DNA from: Rhodothermales bacterium
Lineage (GTDB): Bacteria; Bacteroidota; Rhodothermia; Rhodothermales; VXPQ01
NCBI GenBank assembly: GCA_040904565.1
Contig: JBBDTI010000075.1
Location: 183,659-247,658, forward strand
Direction: 5' to 3'
DNA length: 64,000 nt
Below, piece by piece: positions 23,805-40,849 of this stretch (its first letter is position 1; each line of letters starts with the position of its first letter). Both the position numbers and the translations under genes were made by a program. The notes beneath the pieces are model-generated. The model had not been told where the DNA came from. It did no database searches and worked only from the letters and a program-made list of their open reading frames with translations.

Positions 23805-26800
23805 TCAGGCCGCGACCTGTTCCGACAGGGCTTCGTCGCCCGATTCCTCCTCGAGGCGCAGCAGCGCATTGCGATACTCGACCGGCATAACCTTGACGAA
23901 CTCCTCGAGAGAAGCCTCCCAGTTCTCCAGCACCCAGCGCGCGGTCTTGCTGTCCGTGTAGCGGTAGTGGTTTTCGACCATTTCACGGAGCTCCGTAATG
24001 TCGGCTGGATCGGTGACCTCTTCGAGGTCCACCATCTCGATATTGCACCTAAGGGTTCTAAACTCCAGGGTTCCGTCGAGCACGTAGGCGACGCCCCCGC
24101 TCATCCCCGCCGCGAAATTGCGGCCCGTCGGTCCGAGCACGACGACGCGCCCGCCCGTCATGTATTCGCAGCCGTGGTCCCCGATACCTTCGACGACGGC
24201 ACGGACGCCGCTGTTGCGAACGCCGAACCGCTCACCGGCCTGCCCGCGCACGTATACCTCGCCGCGCGTCGCACCGTAGAGGGCCACGTTCCCGACGATG
24301 ATGTTATCGTGAGGCGTGTAGGAAGCTGTTTCGGGCGGACGGATAATCAGGCGTGCGCCGGAAAGGCCCTTTCCGAAGTAATCGTTTGCATCGCCGCTCA
24401 ACCGCACCGTGATACCGCGCGCCCCGAACGCCATAAAGCTCTGTCCGCCCGAACCCGTCATATTCATCCGGATCGTGTCGTCGGGAAGGCCCTTCAGCGG
24501 ATAGCGCTTGCTGACTTCGGCCGACAGCAACGTGCCGACCGTACGATGAGTATTGTTGATCTTCACGTCGAACTCCACGGGCTGGCCACGCTGGAGTGCA
24601 TCCTCCGCCTTCTTGATGAGCAGATGGTCGAGCGCTCGCTCGATGCCGTGATCCTGCTCGGTCGCGTGAAACTTGCGAAGCGCGGGCGGCACCTCGGCCT
24701 TGACGAGGATGGGGGAGAGATCGAGGTGCCGCGCCTTCCAGTGCTTGACGCCGGACCGGGCCTTCAGCCGCTGAACCTGTCCGACCATCTCGTCGATCGT
24801 CCGAAATCCGAGCTGCGCCATCACCTTGCGCAGCTCCTCCGCCACGAAGTGGAAGTAATTGATCACGTGCTCCGGCTTGCCCTCGAATTTCTTGCGGAGC
24901 TCCGGATCCTGCGTGGCGATGCCGACGGGACACGTGTTGAGGTGACACTTGCGCATCATGATGCAGCCCATGGCCACCAGCGGCGCCGTGGCAAAGCCGA
25001 ATTCGTCGGCTCCGAGCAGACAGGCAATCGCCACGTCGCGCCCGGTCTTTAGCTGGCCGTCACATTCGAGCTTTACGCGGCTGCGGAGGCCGTTCCGCAT
25101 GAGCACCTGGTGGGCTTCCGAAAGCCCGAGCTCCCAGGGCAGTCCGGCGTGCATCAGCGAAGTCGCCGGCGACGCGCCCGTCCCGCCGTCATGGCCGGAG
25201 ATGAGAATTACGTCGGCCTTCCCCTTCGCCACGCCGGCAGCCACCGTGCCGACACCCACTTCGGAGACCAGCTTGACGGTCACCCGCGCGTCCGGATTCG
25301 AATTCTTGAGATCGTGGATGAGCTGCGCCAGGTCCTCGATCGAATAAATGTCGTGGTGCGGCGGTGGAGAGATCAGTCCGACGTACGGCGTGGAATGACG
25401 CGTCTTGGCGATCCACGGATACACCTTCTCACCGGGCAGCTGACCACCCTCGCCGGGCTTGGCACCCTGCGCCATCTTGATCTGGATCTCGTCGGCGCTC
25501 GTCAGATAGTCGATCGTGACGCCGAATCGTCCGGAGGCCACCTGCTTGATGCGGCTCCGCTTCTCACTGTCCCGACGATACCGGCTCGGGTCTTCTCCCC
25601 CCTCGCCGGTGTTGTTCTTACCGCCGAGGCGATTCATCGCCACGGCCAGCGTCTCGTGTACCTCCTGCGAGATGGAGCCGTACGACATGGCGCCCGTCTT
25701 GAAGCGCTTTACGATTTCGGTCCACGGTTCTACCTCGTCGAGAGGCACCGGGTTAACGTCCGCGTCGTCGAATTCCAGCAGGCCGCGCAGCGTACCCAGG
25801 GTCTTCGTTTGATCGTTGATCCGCTCGGCGAAATCGTCGTACGTATCGGGCTGCCCCGAACGCACGGCATGCTGAAGGCGGGCGATCGACATGGGATTGA
25901 ACATGTGAAACTCGCCGTTGCGACGCCACAGGTATTTCCCGCCCGGCTCGAGGTCCGTCGCAAAGGATATTTCGACCTCCGGATACGCCTTTCGGTGGCG
26001 GATCCGGGCTTCCTCGGCGATGACGTCGAGGCCGATGCCGCCGATCCGGCTGGCCGTCCCGGCGAAATAGTCGTCGATGACCTCCTGCGAGATGCCGATG
26101 GCCTCGAAGATCTGCGCGCCGCGATAGCTCTGCACGGTGGAGATGCCCATCTTGGACATCACCTTCAGGATGCCCTTCCCGACGGCCTTGATATACTTTG
26201 CCTTCGCCTCGTCGGACGATACGTCTTCGTCTGCCAGGAGGCGCACGATGACCTGGAGCGCCAGGTAGGGATTCACCGCGTCGGCTCCATAGCCGATGAG
26301 CGCGCAGAAGTGATGCACCTCCCGCGGCTCACCGCTCTCGACGACGATCGAGGCACGCGTCCGCAACCCTTTTCGGATGAGGTGATGATGTACGGCGCCC
26401 GTTGCGAGGAGTGCAGGGATTGCCACCCCATCCGGGCCGGCGCGGCGGTCGGAGAGCACGAGGACGGAGCGGCCTTCCTCCACCGCCTTTTCCGCCTTTC
26501 GGCGGATACCGTCGAGAGCCCCGCGGAGTGCATCCCCGCCACCGTCCGCATCGAATATCATGTCCAGCCGTTCGGCCTGGAGCTCGTCGATACCTGAATT
26601 CGGCAATCGAGTAAGATCCCGATCCGTCAGTATCGGCTGCTTGAGTATGAGCTTCCGGCAGTGCTGCGGCGTTTCCTTAAAGAGATCGCGTTCCGACCCG
26701 AGCTGCGTAAACAAGGAGGTCACCAGCTCCTCGCGTATAGCGTCGAGAGGAGGATTCGTCACCTGCGCGAAGAGCTGGCGGAAGTAATCGTAGAGCAAGC

Positions 26801-28337
26801 GCGGGTTGTCCGACAGCACCGCGATCGGCGTGTCGTCCCCCATGGAGCCCAGCACCTCCTTGCCGCGCATCCCCATCGGCTTCATGAGGACGCGCTCGTC
26901 TTCCAGCGTATAGCCGAAAAGCTTCTCCCTGGTATGCAGCTCATCCTGATCGTACCCCGCCGGCTTACCGTGATCCGGCAGATCCTGGATGTGCACCGTG
27001 TTGTCGCGGATCCACTCCCCGTAAGGCCGGCGCGTGGCCAGCCGGGTTTTGATTTCCTCGTCGCTGATAATTCGATGCTCCTGCAGATCCACAAGAAACA
27101 TCTTCCCGGGCTGCAGGCGTCCCTTCGACTCGACGTTCGCTGGATCCACTCTCAGCACGCCGGTCTCCGACGAGAGAATAACGCAGCCGTCTTTCGTGAC
27201 CGTGTAGCGCGACGGGCGGAGGCCGTTTCGGTCCAGCACGGCCCCGATGTACCGGCCGTCCGTGAACGGCAGGGTGGCCGGTCCGTCCCACGGCTCCATC
27301 AGGCAGGAATGATACTCGTAGAACGCACGTTTCTCCTCACTCATCTCGTTCGCATACTCCCACGCTTCCGGCACGAGCATCATCATCGCGTGGGGCAGGG
27401 AGCGGCCCGTATGATAGAGCAGCTCGACGGCGTTGTCCAGCACCGCCGAATCGCTCTGCCCTTCCGTGAGGATAGGCAGCAGTTTCTTCATGTCGTCCCC
27501 GAAAAGATCCGACTCGAAGAGTTCCTGCCGCGCGTTCATCCAGTTGACGTTCCCGCGCAGCGTGTTGATCTCGCCGTTATGAGAGATAAAGCGGAACGGC
27601 TGAGCGAGGCTCCATTGCGGCAGCGTATTCGTCGAGAAGCGAGAGTGAACCATGGCGAGCGCGCTCTTCATGAGCGGATCGCTGAGATCGGGATAGTACT
27701 CGCCGAGCTGCTCGACGGTCAGCATGCCCTTGTACACGAGCGTACGTGAGGACAGAGACGGAATGTAGCACGTATCCTTTTGCTTCAGATCCGAGTCCGC
27801 AATACTGTGCTCGACGACCTTTCGGATCACGAAGAGCTTGCGCTCGAAGGCATCCTGATCCTTAACTCCGCGTCCCTTTTCGACGAAGACCTGCCAGATG
27901 TCGGGTTCCTGCTGGCGGGACGCCTCTCCCACGCGCGCGTCGTTAGTCGGTACTCGGCGCCAGCCGATGACCTTCTGGCCTTCGGCCTGAACCACTTCTT
28001 CGATTTTTTCTCTGCAGGCGGTGCGCTCGTCGTAGTCCTGCGGCAGAAATACGAGTCCGGCCGCATACGATCCCGGCTCCTTCGATCCGGCGCCCAGGTC
28101 GTCCAGAATGGATGCAAAAAATTCGTGCGGCAGTTGCATGAGGATTCCCGTCCCGTCGCCCGTCCGCTCGTCACAGCCACACGCACCGCGGTGCTCCAGG
28201 TTGATCAACATTTCGATCCCCTTCTTCACGATATCGTGCGAGGGCGTATTCTGTACGTTACAGATAAAGCCTACGCCGCACGCGTCGTGCTCGTAGAAGG
28301 AGTCGTACAAGCCTTCGCGAGTACGTGAGTATTGCAT
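23805..28337 (-). CDS. gltB: Glutamate synthase large subunit
   Basis: EHDACGVG (N-terminal nucleophile Cys), [41 protein letters not shown] (3Fe-4S), GXGXG C-terminal domain. Confidence 0.98.
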
Positions 28338-30163: not shown

Positions 30164-30727
30164 TCACGTCGGCATGAGGCCGGCGCGGCGCGCGTATTCG
30201 AAGACGTTGCCGGCTTCGAGAATGTCGGCCACGTCGCCGAGCGGCTTGAGCAGGTATTCTTCGCCGGTCGTATGGTTGGTCAGCTTGCCGACGGACGTAT
30301 CGATCTCCAGGTCGTCGCCGGTGCGCACCCGTTCGACGAGCCGCTCGATCGACTCGAACGGCACGACAAAGCCCCCATCGACGGCGTTTCGATAGAAGAT
30401 CCTGGCGTAGCTCTCCGCTACGACGGCCTTACACCCCGCTTGCTGCAGGGCGAAGGGAGCGTGTTCTCGCGACGATCCGCAGCCGAAATTAGATCCGCCC
30501 ACGATGATCGCGTACTCGCTCTCGAAGGCCTCTTCCTCCGTAAACGGCTTGCCGCCGTACGGAAGTCCTTGCTGATCCGTCGGCACGCCGCTCAGCGCGA
30601 AGCGTCCGTAAAACTTCTTCTCCTCGGGATCGGAGAGGCTGTAGACGAGGTGCTCGGCCGGAATAATCTGGTCCGTGTCGATCGCGTCTCCCAGCACGTA
30701 GGCCTTTCCTTTAATGATGTCCTGCAT
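30164..30727 (-). CDS. leuD: 3-isopropylmalate dehydratase small subunit
   Basis: [33 protein letters not shown]. Confidence 0.93.
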
Positions 30728-30775
30728 GTCGTCTCCCTTCTCTCCTGAATCTACAAACTGTGCATCGGCGCCGGT

Positions 30776-32068
30776 TTAGACGAGCACCTCGCGGGGGTCC
30801 GTGATGACGCCGGCAACCGCCGAGGCGGCTACCGTGAACGGCGAGGCTAGGTACACCGACGCATTCTTCGACCCCATTCGACCCGGGAAATTCCGGTTCG
30901 TGGTCGATATCACGACCTCCGTACCGTGCGTGCGTCCGAACGTGTCCGTCGGGCCGCCCAGGCAGGCAGCACAGGAAGCCTGACCGAGCTTGCAACCGGC
31001 CCGCTCGAAGATATCGTAGAGCGTCTCCCCGTCTACCCGCGTCGTATGCAGCTCGTTGCCAATATGGGTCGTCGCCGGCACGATGTACGTATCCACCCGC
31101 ACTTCCTGTCCTTTGAGGATTCTGGCGGCCGCCACGAAGTCTTCCAGCTTGCCGCCCGTGCAGCTGCCCACGTAGGCACGGTCGAGCCGGGTGCCGACAA
31201 CTTCCGAGACGGTAGCCTTGTTATCCGGACTGTGAGGCTTGGCCACGAGCGGCTCCATCTCCTCGACGTTGTACGTCTTGAACGTATGGAAGCGTGCGTC
31301 GTCGTCGCCGTAGACGGCCTCGAACGGGGCGTCCGTCCGGGCGCGCACGTACTCGAACGTCTTCTCGTCGGGCGGTATGATTCCGTTCTTTCCGCCGGCT
31401 TCGATGGCCATGTTCGTCAGCGTCATTCGCTCGTGAACGGGCAGATCGAAGACGGCTTGTCCGTCGAACTCGAGAGCGCGGTACGTACCGCCGTCCGTGC
31501 CGATGTCGCCGATGACCTGCAGGATGAGATCCTTGGCCATCAGATACGGCGGCAGCGTCCCTTCGAAGACGAACTTCATCGTCTCGGGGACTTTCACCCA
31601 CATCTTGCCCGTCCCCAGGATCAACGCCGCATCGGTGTTCCCCACACCCGTGGAGAACATCCCGAACGCCCCCGAGGTGCAGCTGTGGCTGTCCGTGCCG
31701 ACGAGCAGCGAGCCGGGACGGTTGAAGCCTTCCTCGGCCAGCGCCATGTGGCATACACCTTTATAGTTCGGCGTACCCGGATCGTAGTAGTAGGGCAGGT
31801 CGTGCTCCGCCGCAAACTCGCGGAGTATCTCCACGTTGCGGTTCGCGTGGTGGTTTTTCGTGAAGATATAGTGGTCGGGTATGATGACCAGCTTCTCCTT
31901 GTCCCACGGCACGGCATGTTCGCCGAACTCGCGCTTGAAGATGTCGATCGTGGGCGGTCCGCAGACGTCGTGCGTCATGAGGATGTCCACGTCGACCCAG
32001 ATATTGTCGCCTGGTGCCACGCGCTCGCGCCCGGCATGCCGGGCCAGTATTTTTTCGGTAATCGTCAC
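30776..32068 (-). CDS. leuC: 3-isopropylmalate dehydratase large subunit (short LeuC/HacA-type)
   Basis: THDVCGP, GTDSHSCT, GSCTGGK, CAACLGG, STTNRNFPGRMG. Confidence 0.93.
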   Translation of the reverse strand: MTITEKILARHAGRERVAPGDNIWVDVDILMTHDVCGPPTIDIFKREFGEHAVPWDKEKLVIIPDHYIFTKNHHANRNVEILREFAAEHDLPYYYDPGTPNYKGVCHMALAEEGFNRPGSLLVGTDSHSCTSGAFGMFSTGVGNTDAALILGTGKMWVKVPETMKFVFEGTLPPYLMAKDLILQVIGDIGTDGGTYRALEFDGQAVFDLPVHERMTLTNMAIEAGGKNGIIPPDEKTFEYVRARTDAPFEAVYGDDDARFHTFKTYNVEEMEPLVAKPHSPDNKATVSEVVGTRLDRAYVGSCTGGKLEDFVAAARILKGQEVRVDTYIVPATTHIGNELHTTRVDGETLYDIFERAGCKLGQASCAACLGGPTDTFGRTHGTEVVISTTNRNFPGRMGSKNASVYLASPFTVAASAVAGVITDPREVLV

Positions 32069-36750: not shown

Positions 36751-38550
36751 TTAAACGAACGCGTTCGGCGTGAGGCGCTTCGTAATCATCTCATCCGTCG
36801 ACGCACCGGAGGGCACCATCGGGAAGACCATTTCTTCCTTGATGACCCGGAACTCCATCACCACGGGGCGATCGTTGACCTCCCAGGCTTGCTTGATGAT
36901 CTCGTCGACCTCCTCGGGCTTCTCGGCCCGCAGTCCGACGCAGTGATGCGCCTCGGCCAGCTTGACGAAGTCCGGGTTCGTCTCCGTCAGATCCGTGTGA
37001 CTGAATCGCTCCTCGTGAAACAGCTCCTGCCACTGGCGCACCATGCCGAGAAAGTTGTTGTTGATGACGACGATTTTGAGAGGCAGCTTGTGCGCGGCCG
37101 CCACGCTCAACTCCTGCGCGTTCATCACGAAACCGCCGTCGCCGTTGATGGACACGACCGTACGGCCCGTCCCCCTCAACCCGAACGCGGCACCCATGGC
37201 CGCAGGCAGGCAGAATCCCATCGTTCCGAGTCCACCCGACGTAATGTGGGAACGAGGATGGATGAACCGTCCGTACTGGGCGGCCCACATCTGATGCTGC
37301 CCGACATCCGTCACCGTAACGGCCTCGCCCTTTGATTGCTCGCGGATGCGCTGCAGGACGTACTGTGCACGCAGCCGGCCGTCATCCTGATCGTACTCGA
37401 GAGGTGCCTTTTTTCTCCACGCATCGATCTGCTGGAGCCATGCGTCCGTATCGCCGGCTTCTACGAGAGGCTCCAGCCGCTCGAGCGCGTCACGCGTATC
37501 GCCGACGATGGCGCAATCCACGTACACGTTCTTCGAGATGCTCGACGGGTCGATATCCATATGGATGATCTTTGCGTGCGGCGCCCACGATTCGAGCTTG
37601 CCCGTAACCCGATCGTCAAATCGTGCGCCGACGGCAATGATCAGGTCCGAGTTCTGCACGGCCATATTCGCGTACCACGTTCCGTGCATGCCGAGCATGC
37701 CCAGCGAAAGTTCATCGTCCTCCGGAAAGGCACCCAATCCATGTAGCGTCGTCGTGACGGGTATGCGAGTCTTTCGCGCCACCTTCGTCAGGATTTCGGA
37801 GGCATCACCACCAACGGTCCCTCCACCTACGTAAAACAGCGGCTTCTTCGCTTCAGCCATCATGCCTGCCGCACGGCGAATCTTGTTCTCGGCTCCGTGG
37901 GCCGTAAACGAATAGCCGCGAAGATCGACATCTTCGGGATACACGAACTCCGTCTCATCCAGCAGGACATCCTTCGGCAGATCCACGACCACGGGTCCGG
38001 GCCGCCCCGTGCGCGCTATATGGTAGGCATGCTTCACCGTCCTGGCCAGGTCCTTCACGTCCCGCACCAGAAAGCTGTGCTTCGTGATGCTGCGGGTAAT
38101 GCCGATCGTGTCGCACTCCTGAAACGCGTCGTTCCCGATGAGGTGGGTGGGCACCTGCCCGGTGAACACGACGATAGGCACGGAATCCAGGTAGGCGTCG
38201 GCGATACCCGTAACCGTGTTGGTGGCGCCGGGCCCGCTCGTCACGAGCACGGTGCCGACCTTTCCGGTCGCCTTCGCGTAGCCCTCGGCGGCGTGCGTGC
38301 CTCCCTGCTCGTGTCGGACGAGCACGTGCTCGAAATCCGGCTTGATGCGCGCCATCTCGTCGTAAATCTTGATGACCGCACCGCCCGGATGCCCGAATAC
38401 CACCTCGACGCCCTCAGCGTCCAGGGAGCGTAGAAAAATCTCCGCGCCGCTCATGCGTTTCGATCCGTTGACGGATGTCCGAGCCTGCTCGATACCGTCT
38501 TCTCTCGTCTCAGGCATGGACTTGGTCGTTGTGTTCTGGTCGTCTTTCAT
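36751..38550 (-). CDS. ilvB: Acetolactate synthase large subunit, biosynthetic
   Basis: FGHPGGA, RHEQG, TSGPGATN, DAFQE, DVGQHQMW, SGGLGTMG; ThDP motif GDGGF..NN; likely start ATG 38550. Confidence 0.96.
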   Translation of the reverse strand: MKDDQNTTTKSMPETREDGIEQARTSVNGSKRMSGAEIFLRSLDAEGVEVVFGHPGGAVIKIYDEMARIKPDFEHVLVRHEQGGTHAAEGYAKATGKVGTVLVTSGPGATNTVTGIADAYLDSVPIVVFTGQVPTHLIGNDAFQECDTIGITRSITKHSFLVRDVKDLARTVKHAYHIARTGRPGPVVVDLPKDVLLDETEFVYPEDVDLRGYSFTAHGAENKIRRAAGMMAEAKKPLFYVGGGTVGGDASEILTKVARKTRIPVTTTLHGLGAFPEDDELSLGMLGMHGTWYANMAVQNSDLIIAVGARFDDRVTGKLESWAPHAKIIHMDIDPSSISKNVYVDCAIVGDTRDALERLEPLVEAGDTDAWLQQIDAWRKKAPLEYDQDDGRLRAQYVLQRIREQSKGEAVTVTDVGQHQMWAAQYGRFIHPRSHITSGGLGTMGFCLPAAMGAAFGLRGTGRTVVSINGDGGFVMNAQELSVAAAHKLPLKIVVINNNFLGMVRQWQELFHEERFSHTDLTETNPDFVKLAEAHHCVGLRAEKPEEVDEIIKQAWEVNDRPVVMEFRVIKEEMVFPMVPSGASTDEMITKRLTPNAFV

Positions 38551-38685
38551 ACTGATACGCTGATCCTGGCGTGGATGCTCTCCGTGAGGTTGCTTGCACT
38601 GGGTAACGATGCATCCGACCCATCGTCGAAAAGCGACGTTCCCTTCCACCACCGGGGCGCGCTGTGCTCCCGGTCGCCGGCATTC

Positions 38686-38881
38686 AATAAATAATTACAG
38701 GGGGGCCGCATCGGCTTCGCGGGCGTCGTCTGAGGGCCAACCCCTCAACGTCCGTCTGATGCCTGATTGCACACCTGGAGAAATGCTAGGGGATTGACCG
38801 GGGGACTTAGCCCGAAATAATAATAAGGCTAACAAGGAGGACGACCGCTAGAAGCCGTCCACTACGTACAAGGTCAATCCC
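38686..38881 (-). promoter_or_regulatory. Candidate attenuator RNA of the ilv-leu operon
   Basis: mRNA segments 1 GGGAUUGACC (38881-38872), 2 GGUCAAUCCC (38799-38790) and 3 GGGGUUGGCC (38744-38735); hairpin UGAGGG/CCCUCA (38747-38731); U-rich tract 38699-38686. Confidence 0.6.
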
Positions 38882-38968
38882 TGAAAGGACCCGCGCGTCC
38901 ACATTGATCCGCTCGACGCCACACCGCTTGATGGCGCTGACTGCGATATGTGACTGCGGATAATACAT
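38807..38968 (-). CDS. Leu/Val/Ile-rich leader peptide of the ilv-leu operon (IlvL-like)
   Basis: Hand translation MYYPQSHIAVSAIKRCGVERINVDARVLSGIDLVRSGRLLAVVLLVSLIIISG* (53 aa; alternative GTG start at 38902 gives 31 aa); 11 of 13 codons at 38854-38816 are Leu/Val/Ile; same strand as ilvB and upstream of it. Confidence 0.75.
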   Translation of the reverse strand: MYYPQSHIAVSAIKRCGVERINVDARVLSGIDLVRSGRLLAVVLLVSLIIISG

Positions 38969-39312
38969 GCTCGTGTGCGTGTGACGTGGTACTGCGCTGA
39001 AGGTCCTGCGTCAGGTGTGTCCAAGAACGTTAATCCTAACGCGCTCGTCAAGTGATAGATCGGGCAATTAATCAAGTCCCCCCACAGAGAGGGGCTCTCC
39101 TCGGTAGCGCTTACAGTTTACTTATATAGTTTATATCTGATATATACCTCTCTTTTTCAGTCTCTTAAGACAGCTACCCTAATACTATTATCTGCCAGGT
39201 CACTAGCTGGGGCTCGATCCGCCTTCCATTTCATGCTATCTTCACCTCTATCCACCTCGGGGCGCCGGCCCAAAGAGCCTTCACATACGCTTCACCGGCA
39301 TTCACTGGCCTA

Positions 39313-39409
39313 AAAAGCGCTTTTACGCACGCCGCCAAAATTGAAAGCGCTTTTATTATTCGAGGTATTGAACTGTTTGTGCTCTTATCCTTAACATTGC
39401 AAGTGTTAA
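39313..39409 (+). promoter_or_regulatory. amtB promoter region with palindromic operator candidates
   Basis: AAAGCGCTTT twice with centres 30 bp apart (39314-39323, 39344-39353); TTG-N21-TAACATTG resembles the Bacteroidota -33/-7 promoter; TTAACA-N7-TGTTAA palindrome (39391-39409) overlaps the -7 element. Confidence 0.55.
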
Positions 39410-39454
39410 TCCGGATTTCGCCTTAATTCTTTAGGCCATAACGAGATCACACTT

Positions 39455-40849
39455 ATGATACGCGCAATACTCCTAGCCCTTGTCCTCGCCGTGGCGGCAC
39501 CCGTCGCGGCTTTTCCCACCGCACCGGCATCCCCTGCACCGCAAGAGCAGGTCGAAGGCGCCGATGCCATGACGGAGGCGCCTCCTGAGGAAGCGCCGGT
39601 CGAAGTCGCTCAGGCACCCGATACGCAGGCGAATCTCGACTTCGTCTGGACGATCCTGGCGGCCGTACTGGTCTTCTTCATGCAGGCCGGATTCGCCCTC
39701 GTAGAGACGGGCTTCACGCGGTCGAAGAACGCCGTGAACATCATCATGAAGAATTTCATGGATGTATCCGCGGGCGCACTCGTGTTTTTCACGGTCGGGT
39801 TCGGACTGATGTTCGGGACCACGGCCGGCGGTTGGATCGGAACGGACGGCTTCTTCCTGGCCGGACTCGCTGACGATCCGTGGACGTGGGCCTTCTTCCT
39901 GTTCCAGGCCGTGTTCGCCGCCACCGCGGCGACGATCGTGTCCGGTGCCGTGGCCGAGCGGACGAAGTTCACGGGCTACCTCATCTTCTCCGTCCTGATC
40001 ACGGCGTTCATCTACCCCGTCTTCGGTTCGTGGGCGTGGGGCGGCCTGTTCAACGGCGCAGGATGGCTCGAGGCCCTCGGCTTTATCGACTTCGCCGGGT
40101 CCACCGTGGTGCACTCCGTGGGCGCATGGGCCGCGCTGGCCGGTGCCCTCGTCGTCGGGCCGCGCGTGGGCAAGTACGACGAGCACGGCAAGCCGCGGCA
40201 CATCGCGGGGCACAGCCTTCCGCTCGCCGCACTCGGCGTGTTTATCCTCTGGTTCGGATGGTTCGGCTTCAACGCCGGTTCCACCACCGCCGGTACGGTT
40301 GACATCGCACTGATCGCCTTGAATACGTTCCTCGCCGCGGGCGCAGGAGCCACCGCGTCAATGATCACCACGTGGATCCGAAACGGCAAACCCGACGCTC
40401 CCCTGACGCTGAACGGCGTGCTGGGCGGACTCGTCGGCATCACGGCCGGGTGCGCGAACCTCTCGCCCGGATTCGCCATCATCACGGGAGCGATCGCCGG
40501 TGTCATCGTCGTCTATTCGACCATGCTGCTCGATAAATTCGTCGACGACGCCGTAGGCGCCATCACGGTTCACGGCGTGTGCGGAGCGTGGGGAACGCTT
40601 GCTGCCGGACTCTTCAATGCCGGCAACATGTTCGACATGAGCATCGTGAGCGTGCAGCTGATCGGTATCGCTGCCGCCTTCCTGTGGACCTTCCCGGTCA
40701 GCTTCGTGCTGTTCAAGCTCATCGATTCGATCGTCGGACTGCGCGTCAACGGGCAGCTCGAAGAGATCGGACTCGATCTCCACGAGCACGACAACCAGGC
40801 CTATCCGGAGTTTCTGCCGGAGGACGAGCTTTCGCTCTCCGAGGTCTAA
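39455..40849 (+). CDS. amtB: Ammonium transporter (Amt family)
   Basis: Signal-like N-terminus; FFMQAGFALVE, IVSGAVAER, DFAGSTVVH, LWFGWFGFNAGS, DDAVGAITVHGVCG (twin His); C-terminal EEIGLDLHEH. Confidence 0.96.
   Translation: MIRAILLALVLAVAAPVAAFPTAPASPAPQEQVEGADAMTEAPPEEAPVEVAQAPDTQANLDFVWTILAAVLVFFMQAGFALVETGFTRSKNAVNIIMKNFMDVSAGALVFFTVGFGLMFGTTAGGWIGTDGFFLAGLADDPWTWAFFLFQAVFAATAATIVSGAVAERTKFTGYLIFSVLITAFIYPVFGSWAWGGLFNGAGWLEALGFIDFAGSTVVHSVGAWAALAGALVVGPRVGKYDEHGKPRHIAGHSLPLAALGVFILWFGWFGFNAGSTTAGTVDIALIALNTFLAAGAGATASMITTWIRNGKPDAPLTLNGVLGGLVGITAGCANLSPGFAIITGAIAGVIVVYSTMLLDKFVDDAVGAITVHGVCGAWGTLAAGLFNAGNMFDMSIVSVQLIGIAAAFLWTFPVSFVLFKLIDSIVGLRVNGQLEEIGLDLHEHDNQAYPEFLPEDELSLSEV

Follow-up and report, generated by a model that had tools for sequence, protein, structure and literature searches.

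A candidate branched-chain amino acid leader with a four-segment RNA switch in front of ilvB in Rhodothermales

Introduction

Is the branched-chain amino acid operon of Rhodothermales preceded by an amino-acid-sensing leader and, if so, at which step would such a leader act? The question is raised by a 64,000-nucleotide stretch of contig JBBDTI010000075.1 of a Rhodothermales bacterium (the window), in which a first-pass annotation had placed a Leu/Val/Ile-rich open reading frame (ORF) on the minus strand upstream of an ilvBNC-leuBACD-cimA operon. Leader-peptide control of branched-chain operons is textbook biology, and another plain member of this group would be ordinary. In the enterobacterial attenuators ilvL (of ilvGMEDA), ivbL (of ilvBN), and leuL, leaders of 28–32 codons carry the control codons in RNA segment 1, and segments 3 and 4 form a terminator. 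The features that stand out in the design of the locus described here are a leader of ~53 codons, control codons located between the first two segments, the lack of a terminator, and a final hairpin placed on a start codon. We assign a probability of roughly 0.5 to the reading in which the ORF, called here uORF1, is a Leu/Ile/Val-sensing leader with a four-segment RNA switch, the output of which would most likely be translation initiation, with no intrinsic terminator involved.

Leader ORF and its codon run

The elements of the window needed first are as follows.

38968..38807, minus strand: uORF1, the putative leader peptide ORF, 53 codons, from ATG 38968 to TAA 38809-38807, with an alternative in-frame GTG at 38902
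38854..38816, minus strand: control run LLAVVLLVSLIII, encoded by CTT CTA GCG GTC GTC CTC CTT GTT AGC CTT ATT ATT ATT
38550..36751, minus strand: ilvB, the first enzyme gene of the operon (NCBIfam TIGR00118, 784 bits)

Translation bears out the Leu/Val/Ile-rich ORF of the first-pass annotation. The product of uORF1, 53 residues long (MYYPQSHIAVSAIKRCGVERINVDARVLSGIDLVRSGRLLAVVLLVSLIIISG*), includes a run in which 11 of the 13 codons specify Leu, Val, or Ile, and eight of these 11 end in U or A (CTT three times, CTA, GTT, and ATT three times). As had been claimed, such codons are minor ones in the host genome, the G+C content of which is 61.5%; in its long ORFs, CTT and CTA account for 12.8% and 2.8% of the Leu codons, ATT for 19% of the Ile codons, and GTT for 12.4% of the Val codons. 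The stop codon of uORF1 does precede ilvB, although the distance to the ilvB ATG (38550) is 256 nt and not the 257 nt given earlier. The gene identities in the operon were confirmed with NCBIfam models, which yield the order ilvB-ilvN-ilvC-leuB-leuA-leuC-leuD-cimA from 38550 down to 28423 on the minus strand.

A run of this kind, defined as at least 11 Leu/Val/Ile residues out of 13 and ending no more than three residues before a stop, is found in only two of the 94,063 six-frame stop-to-stop segments of at least 20 amino acids in the 4.02 Mb genome. One of them is uORF1 itself and the other is the C terminus of a 307-residue ORF, which makes chance an unlikely explanation of the run in uORF1. 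Scans of uORF1 and of the second small ORF described below (uORF2) against Pfam and NCBIfam returned nothing of note, the sole match being to DUF2633 with E = 0.32.

Conservation of the leader across the order

The ilvB gene was located in 39 of 41 related genomes. The first-pass annotation had proposed to look in relatives for a conserved Leu/Val/Ile run and stop upstream of this gene, and such an arrangement is present at all 17 same-family loci having upstream DNA, with the run ending two to three codons before the stop and ~200–350 nt before ilvB; it recurs at two loci from other families. A covariance model (R1), comprising 19 sequences and extending from -48 to +112 around the uORF1 stop, matches 51 of 151 genomes of the order, each of them once; these genomes belong to 26 of 73 genera. 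In a phylum-wide sample, eight of 151 genomes gave matches, seven of them from the same order; the eighth match is weak (E = 0.004) and probably false.

At 52 of the 54 aligned matches, an ATG-started ORF of 44–111 codons (mostly 47–67) ends in the run at the same position of the model, the two exceptions being the weak outgroup match and one locus with no ATG. R1 takes in no more than the final 16 codons, so that the extended open frame preceding them constitutes independent evidence. All 38 representative sequences keep this frame open over 52 codons or more, whereas the lower threshold of 44 codons is reached by 15 of 76 control frames. The motif GGGAT, which belongs to segment A of the RNA described below, occurs at 12 different distances (54–114 nt) from the stop, yet 27 of 29 representatives have it in the reading frame that the stop closes, so that the insertions and deletions between them come in threes, as expected of a translated sequence. 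From genus to genus, the first two thirds of the peptide vary freely, while what is kept is the Leu/Ile/Val run together with its stop and its frame.

Leu predominates in the run across the 38 representatives, and 33 of them have Leu, Ile, and Val together. The preference for ATT (101 occurrences) over ATC (12) is the opposite of that in the genome, and CTT occurs 114 times. The earlier remark that the leader contains no Thr codons holds for the peptide of the window, but not as a conserved property, since Thr is found within the last 18 codons in 18 of the 38 representative leaders (for example, ...LILITG* and ...IIITV*).

When the ORFs downstream of the leader were compared with Pfam, for 44 of the 54 matches (10 near-identical ones from genus g8 were dropped), 25 of them proved to be ilvB and 17 ilvD, with two being uninformative. 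The comparison as a whole, with its conserved run and stop, open frame, and in-frame GGGAT, strongly supports the earlier proposal of a translated Leu/Val/Ile leader controlling the operon, and it is very probable that uORF1 encodes the leader peptide of the branched-chain operon.

A separate observation concerns the other end of uORF1. Leaders that otherwise show no relationship repeatedly carry a His codon four to seven codons past the ATG (MYYPQSH, MLFTSPH, MSSTFLH, MTQHS, MSHGRH, MTSAHRH), which may mirror a conserved nucleotide signal near the start of transcription or translation.

Alternative helices in the leader RNA

Beyond the run, the locus includes an RNA element and a second small ORF overlapping the start of ilvB, neither of which had been mentioned in the first-pass annotation. 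Their parts in the window are listed below.

38881..38872, minus strand: segment A, GGGATTGACC (codons G-I-D-L), complementary to segment B, with a 10-bp A:B helix in the minimum-energy fold
38860..38839, minus strand: hairpin H1 (GGACGGCT / GGTCGTCC), predicted by folding at the start of the run and followed by U-rich codons
38832..38807, minus strand: hairpin H2, TTAGCC (38832-38827) with GGCTAA (38812-38807, including the stop codon), with ATT ATT ATT in the loop
38799..38790, minus strand: segment B, GGTCAATCCC, beginning 8 nt past the stop and able to pair with A or C
38786..38774, minus strand: conserved block GCATTTCTCCAGG, conserved in alignments A1, A2, and A3, its 3' end being the base of hairpin P
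38777..38698, minus strand: long hairpin P, predicted by folding, tipped by the C:D hairpin and bearing the uORF2 AUG in its 3' arm
38746..38732, minus strand: C:D hairpin, GAGGG-GTTGG-CCCTC, with segment C, GGGGTTGGCC (38744-38735), complementary to B
38711..38547, minus strand: uORF2 (MRPPCNYLL...ISVSV*), 54 codons, the TGA of which (38549-38547) overlaps the ilvB ATG (38550-38548) as ATGA

Segments A and C are near-copies of each other, each complementary to B, and this complementarity of A, read as the codons G-I-D-L, accounts for the conserved "GI" in the peptides. The helices A:B, B:C, and C:D are mutually exclusive, in the manner of helices 1:2, 2:3, and 3:4 of classical attenuators. 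The consensus helix identified by RNAalifold is B:C (GGTCAATCCC with GGGGTTGGCC). In 53 distinct sequences this helix is paired in 99% of cells, and compensatory changes are present at five of the 10 pairs (U-A 26, C-G 18, and U-G 8 in one example), although the alignment behind these figures was fitted to the structure of the model, which lessens what they can say in favor of a switch. None of 500 shuffles matches the observed values, and controls in which the segments were slid fall to 20–60% paired. The best A:B duplex exceeds those of 200 shuffles (p<=0.05) in 20 of the 38 representatives. The local C:D pairing is GAGGG/CCCTC in the window and GGGGTTG/CAACCCC in many relatives. Reading of the sequences, with no formal count, places different arms at the position of H1 in relatives (GGTCGAC/GTCGACC, GGCCGA/TCGGTC, and CCGACG/CGTCGG), and the arms of H2 read identically at loci L002, L003, L005, and L022.

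One could instead suppose that uORF1 encodes a small hydrophobic protein with a function of its own, or that the RNA binds a protein or a ligand and the ORF is incidental. The length of the leader would agree with this explanation, as classical leaders comprise 14–32 codons, and so would the conservation of B and C in primary sequence as well as in pairing. Rfam also includes ilvB-linked riboswitch classes elsewhere, and PMC10272879 mentions a ppGpp class. The hydrophobic tail of the peptide, however, is just ~15 residues long, the part that precedes it is the part that is not conserved, and the searches of protein families described above give such a protein no name. A cmscan search of the region 38300-39600 against 4227 Rfam families gave no matches at E<=10, and the element is found solely in front of ilvB or ilvD. 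We therefore consider a non-sensory role highly improbable.

Start codons downstream of the switch and uORF2

The position of the next start codon relative to segment C is a common feature of the leaders. The ATG of ilvD is located 13–28 nt past C in 15 of the 17 leaders of the ilvD type, right behind the C:D hairpin, and an ATG is found 11–28 nt past C in all 29 leaders of the ilvB type that have uORF2. The latter ATG starts a second small ORF of 42–94 codons (mostly 54–57) in every one of the 29 ilvB-type leaders outside family f3. uORF2 stops near the first in-frame ilvB ATG in 23 of these 29, at the earliest 34 nt before it and at the latest 19 nt inside; stop and start overlap as ATGA in the window and at L005, L060, and L064, and are arranged as TGAtATG in genus g8. 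Each of 18 representatives keeps the uORF2 frame open over 42 codons or more, and the encoded peptides are unrelated between genera. These positions suggest that the default structure of the RNA would mask the initiation region of the next cistron, the AUG being predicted to lie within P in the window, and that the second ORF has been kept open across at least four families, apparently for relaying ribosomes to ilvB.

Family f3 (seven loci: L033-L035, L037, and L054-L056) has no uORF2, and its ilvB starts 41–68 nt past C. By eye, the block that follows B in this family (CTTCACAGG) could pair with CCTGTGAGG in the Shine-Dalgarno region of ilvB, and family f3 may achieve the same masking through a different 3' arm. 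Anti-Shine-Dalgarno pairing was also considered for the locus in the window and was dropped, since the nearest GGAGAG is 33 nt before the ATG, which is too far.

Folding of the leader RNA

In the predicted fold of the full RNA of the window, A:B encloses H1 and H2 and is followed by P with C:D at its tip, and all three nucleotides of the uORF2 AUG (A38711, U38710, and G38709) are paired within P. When the RNA starts past the stop codon, B:C forms and the AUG is largely free, whereas in an RNA that starts at 38792, with the first 7 nt of B omitted, P returns. If pairs across a ribosome are forbidden, the accessibility of the start in the window changes from 0.29 to 0.47; among the 52 leaders treated in this way, it goes up in 30, goes down in eight, and is unchanged in 14. 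The 5' arms pair better with their own start regions than with those of other lineages (mean -1.1 kcal/mol, Wilcoxon p=0.009, 37 representatives), an effect that is modest, with a mean rank fraction of 0.41.

Several other results of this comparison likewise weigh against a switch of the proposed kind. The fold z-scores of the window are unremarkable (-1.4 to +0.3), no better than those of shuffled sequence, so the case for the switch rests on conservation and not on stability. Masking the footprint of the ribosome alone leaves the downstream pairing unchanged in all 52 leaders; the accessibility effect requires the assumption that A:B is blocked by a ribosome located between its two strands, and even then the mean gain is small (0.40 to 0.46). 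In genus g8, with its 12 species, and in some other lineages the A:B helix is weak or missing (p>0.05 in 18 of the 38 representatives). Under that same assumption, B:C reaches a probability of at least 0.45 at equilibrium in only 21 of the 52 leaders, so that an equilibrium switch leaves about half of the lineages unexplained and co-transcriptional kinetics would be needed for them, which in turn keeps classical and Rho-dependent attenuation as alternatives. Finally, B:C might form together with the outer stem of P as a pseudoknot, a structure outside the scope of the folding programs.

Search for terminators

The analogy with E. coli IlvL and IvbL drawn in the first-pass annotation holds for a multivalent leader with a run of control codons, but not for the terminator that it implies. 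In the window, a scan for consensus terminators found none in the interval from the leader stop to ilvB, H1 inside the ORF being the only site, and strict criteria, which also miss a candidate in genus g8, gave no terminator in any of 53 leaders. Relaxed criteria produced scattered candidates, of which only the one in genus g8 is at a conserved position. Thus, there is no conserved intrinsic terminator of the usual form, and the helix that corresponds to 3:4 does not provide one. In leaders of the ilvD type, the C:D hairpin is followed by A/C-rich sequence up to the ATG, with no U tract.

The absence of such an element argues against ribosome-mediated transcription attenuation of the classical type, in which C:D or P would act as an unusual terminator, B:C as the antiterminator, and A:B as the anti-antiterminator. 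The logic of the four segments is nevertheless exactly that of classical attenuators, and the recourse to co-transcriptional folding for reaching B:C in about half of the lineages is likewise shared with them. H1 together with the U-rich run resembles a pause signal, and in the window UAAUUAUUUAUU (38697-38686) is located immediately 3' of P, although this U-rich tail, as judged by reading the sequences, is not common to the other four non-g8 genera of the family. A further point in favor of this explanation, and one that counts against a purely translational output, comes from genus g8 (L039-L049 and L012), where 11 of 12 loci have, within uORF2 and ~148 nt past the leader stop, a terminator-like hairpin with the arms GAACGCTG...CAGCGGTTC or GAAACGC...GCGTTTC and then GTATTTTA. 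Such a hairpin would be read through only if uORF2 were translated close behind the polymerase, a two-stage design that is absent from the window. On balance, we regard classical attenuation as unlikely.

The spacer occupied by uORF2 bears on another explanation, in which the switch sets the translation of uORF2 (or of ilvD) and the real output is termination by Rho in the untranslated spacer before ilvB, a logic of protection from Rho familiar from tnaC and mgtA-type leaders. The ~165 nt from the regulated AUG to ilvB are kept open in 29 of 29 leaders, and would guard against Rho only while translated. In several lineages uORF2 is C-rich and G-poor (C 0.41–0.43 and G 0.23–0.28 at, for example, L052, L064, L071, and L073), but that of the window is not (C 0.28, G 0.30), and leaders of the ilvD type have no spacer at all. 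Rho-dependent control, moreover, would follow from a translational switch rather than replace it, and as the primary output we find it improbable.

RNA evidence

One metatranscriptome matched a small share of the stretch (0.09 of words), the contigs being those of relatives, 85–95% alike. A relative's contig of 265 nt, with 16 differences, spans 38580-38843, that is, the run, the stop, B, and P, and continues into uORF2; a second one covers 38775-38889. These contigs are compatible with a continuous transcript, for which they are weak evidence, with the qualification that they reveal neither strand nor ends nor expression level, that stretches lacking cover have no meaning, and that DNA may be present in libraries of this kind.

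Operon and genomic neighborhood

The operon in the window has no ilvD. Three ILVD_EDD paralogues are located elsewhere in the same genome (contigs C22, C61, and C58; loci L082-L084), and no ORF with a Leu/Ile/Val run was seen upstream of the best ilvD match (C22:22938-23903). Within the operon, leuC and leuD (30164-32068, minus strand) score higher with archaeal-type hacA/LeuD-DmdB subfamily models than with the bacterial leuC/leuD equivalogs, and this assignment fits an isopropylmalate isomerase that would also serve the citramalate route beside cimA. The gene gltB, encoding the large subunit of glutamate synthase (NF008730, 1743 bits; 23805-28337, minus strand), starts 86 nt past the end of cimA on the same strand and may be in the same transcription unit as the branched-chain operon.

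On the other side of the leader, the ammonium transporter gene amt (TIGR00836; 39455-40849, plus strand) is divergent from it. The 490-nt spacer between them (38969-39454) includes an A+T-rich stretch at ~39110-39180 (tatatatcagatataaactatataagtaaactg), which may house promoters for both the leader and amt. A sigma-70 scan of the minus strand over 38300-39500 found no promoter, other promoter types being outside its scope. Among the relatives, the ilvB matches at L011 (genome G009) and L014 (G017), both of genus g8, contain one in-frame TAA near the 5' end, which could reflect a difference in the start site, an assembly error, or a broken gene.

Discussion

The reading that we favor joins the leader peptide to the switch and to the masked start codon. 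In the OFF state, with charged Leu, Ile, and Val tRNAs plentiful or with no ribosome on the RNA, segment A within uORF1 would pair with B past the stop, C would fold with D at the tip of P, and P would base-pair the AUG of uORF2. In the ON state, a ribosome awaiting Leu-, Val-, or Ile-tRNA on the 13-codon run would be held between A and B, melting H1 and H2 and separating A from B; B would then capture C, P would open, and the AUG of uORF2 would be released. We infer both the stalling and the direction of the switch. Ribosomes that translate uORF2 would presumably be handed over to ilvB where the stop of the former overlaps the AUG of the latter, the leader and the operon being presumably co-transcribed, and in relatives with ilvD as the first gene the same hairpin would act directly on the ilvD start codon. 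Translation of uORF2 might in addition shield the spacer from Rho, and in genus g8 it might block formation of the terminator inside uORF2. That the output is translational, taken by itself, we regard as an even bet.

Compared with ilvL, ivbL, and leuL, the leader in the window has the same general plan, namely a short ORF that precedes the operon and carries cognate codons in a run, rare or wobble-read ones among them, overlapping alternative helices of the 1:2, 2:3, and 3:4 type, and multivalent sensing, with all three amino acids represented in 33 of the 38 representatives. It differs in its length (53 codons, and 47–67 in most relatives, compared to 28–32), in the location of the control codons between segments 1 and 2 instead of within segment 1, and in segment 3:4, which has no U tract, forms no usual terminator, and overlaps or abuts a start codon.

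A parallel for the likely output is translational attenuation of the ermC, cat, and ermB kind. In ermC, a ribosome stalled on the leader ORF causes four RNA segments to re-pair, freeing a masked initiation region, and a stalled ribosome would likewise re-pair four segments and unmask the start here. In those systems, however, stalling is caused by an antibiotic together with a specific nascent peptide, whereas here it would be caused by uncharged Leu, Ile, or Val tRNA, and in the present locus the second ORF reaches into the start of the enzyme gene. Dependence on two leader peptides is reported for ermB (PMC8274638), which offers a loose parallel to uORF1 and uORF2.

Amino-acid-responsive attenuation at the level of translation has a counterpart in mycobacteria, where, according to Canestrari et al. 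(10.1101/834739), polycysteine leaderless short ORFs respond to Cys and a ribosome-binding site is unmasked by ribosome stalling. Those ORFs, which are leaderless and short, belong to another phylum and concern another amino acid, and the abstract of that study mentions no relay ORF; the ribosome in the present case would also act differently, separating A from B rather than covering the masking strand. The ilvB-II, ilvB-OMG, and ilvB RNA motifs of Narunsky et al. 2023 (PMC10272879) resemble the present element in that they are conserved RNAs in front of ilvB with uORFs in which branched-chain codons abound; they were read there as transcription attenuators. The region in the window, which has no Rfam match, lies outside those models.

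The first-pass annotation was aware of no such leader in Rhodothermota, and a search of open-access full text agrees, finding no paper, as judged by titles and the openings of abstracts, that links Salinibacter or Rhodothermus to a leader of this kind. Vitreschak et al. reportedly predicted attenuators in Bacteroidetes/Chlorobi in 2004.

We can speculate, at somewhat less than even odds, that this order swapped the textbook terminator for start-codon masking with a two-ORF relay, in which a long sensor ORF would keep the ribosome within the loop of helix A:B while the released strand opens a hairpin on the next start codon, and in which, after the loss of ilvD from the head of the operon, the regulated start survived as a relay ORF of ~55 codons, its frame preserved solely for handing ribosomes to ilvB at its stop. 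If true, amino-acid sensing by translational attenuation would have a clear example beyond Actinobacteria in this locus, which would also show how an attenuator is rewired upon the loss of the first gene of its operon. For the genomes of the order, the comparison leaves two small ORFs and one RNA element to be annotated in about one third of them, the latter being a candidate new RNA family with one copy per genome.

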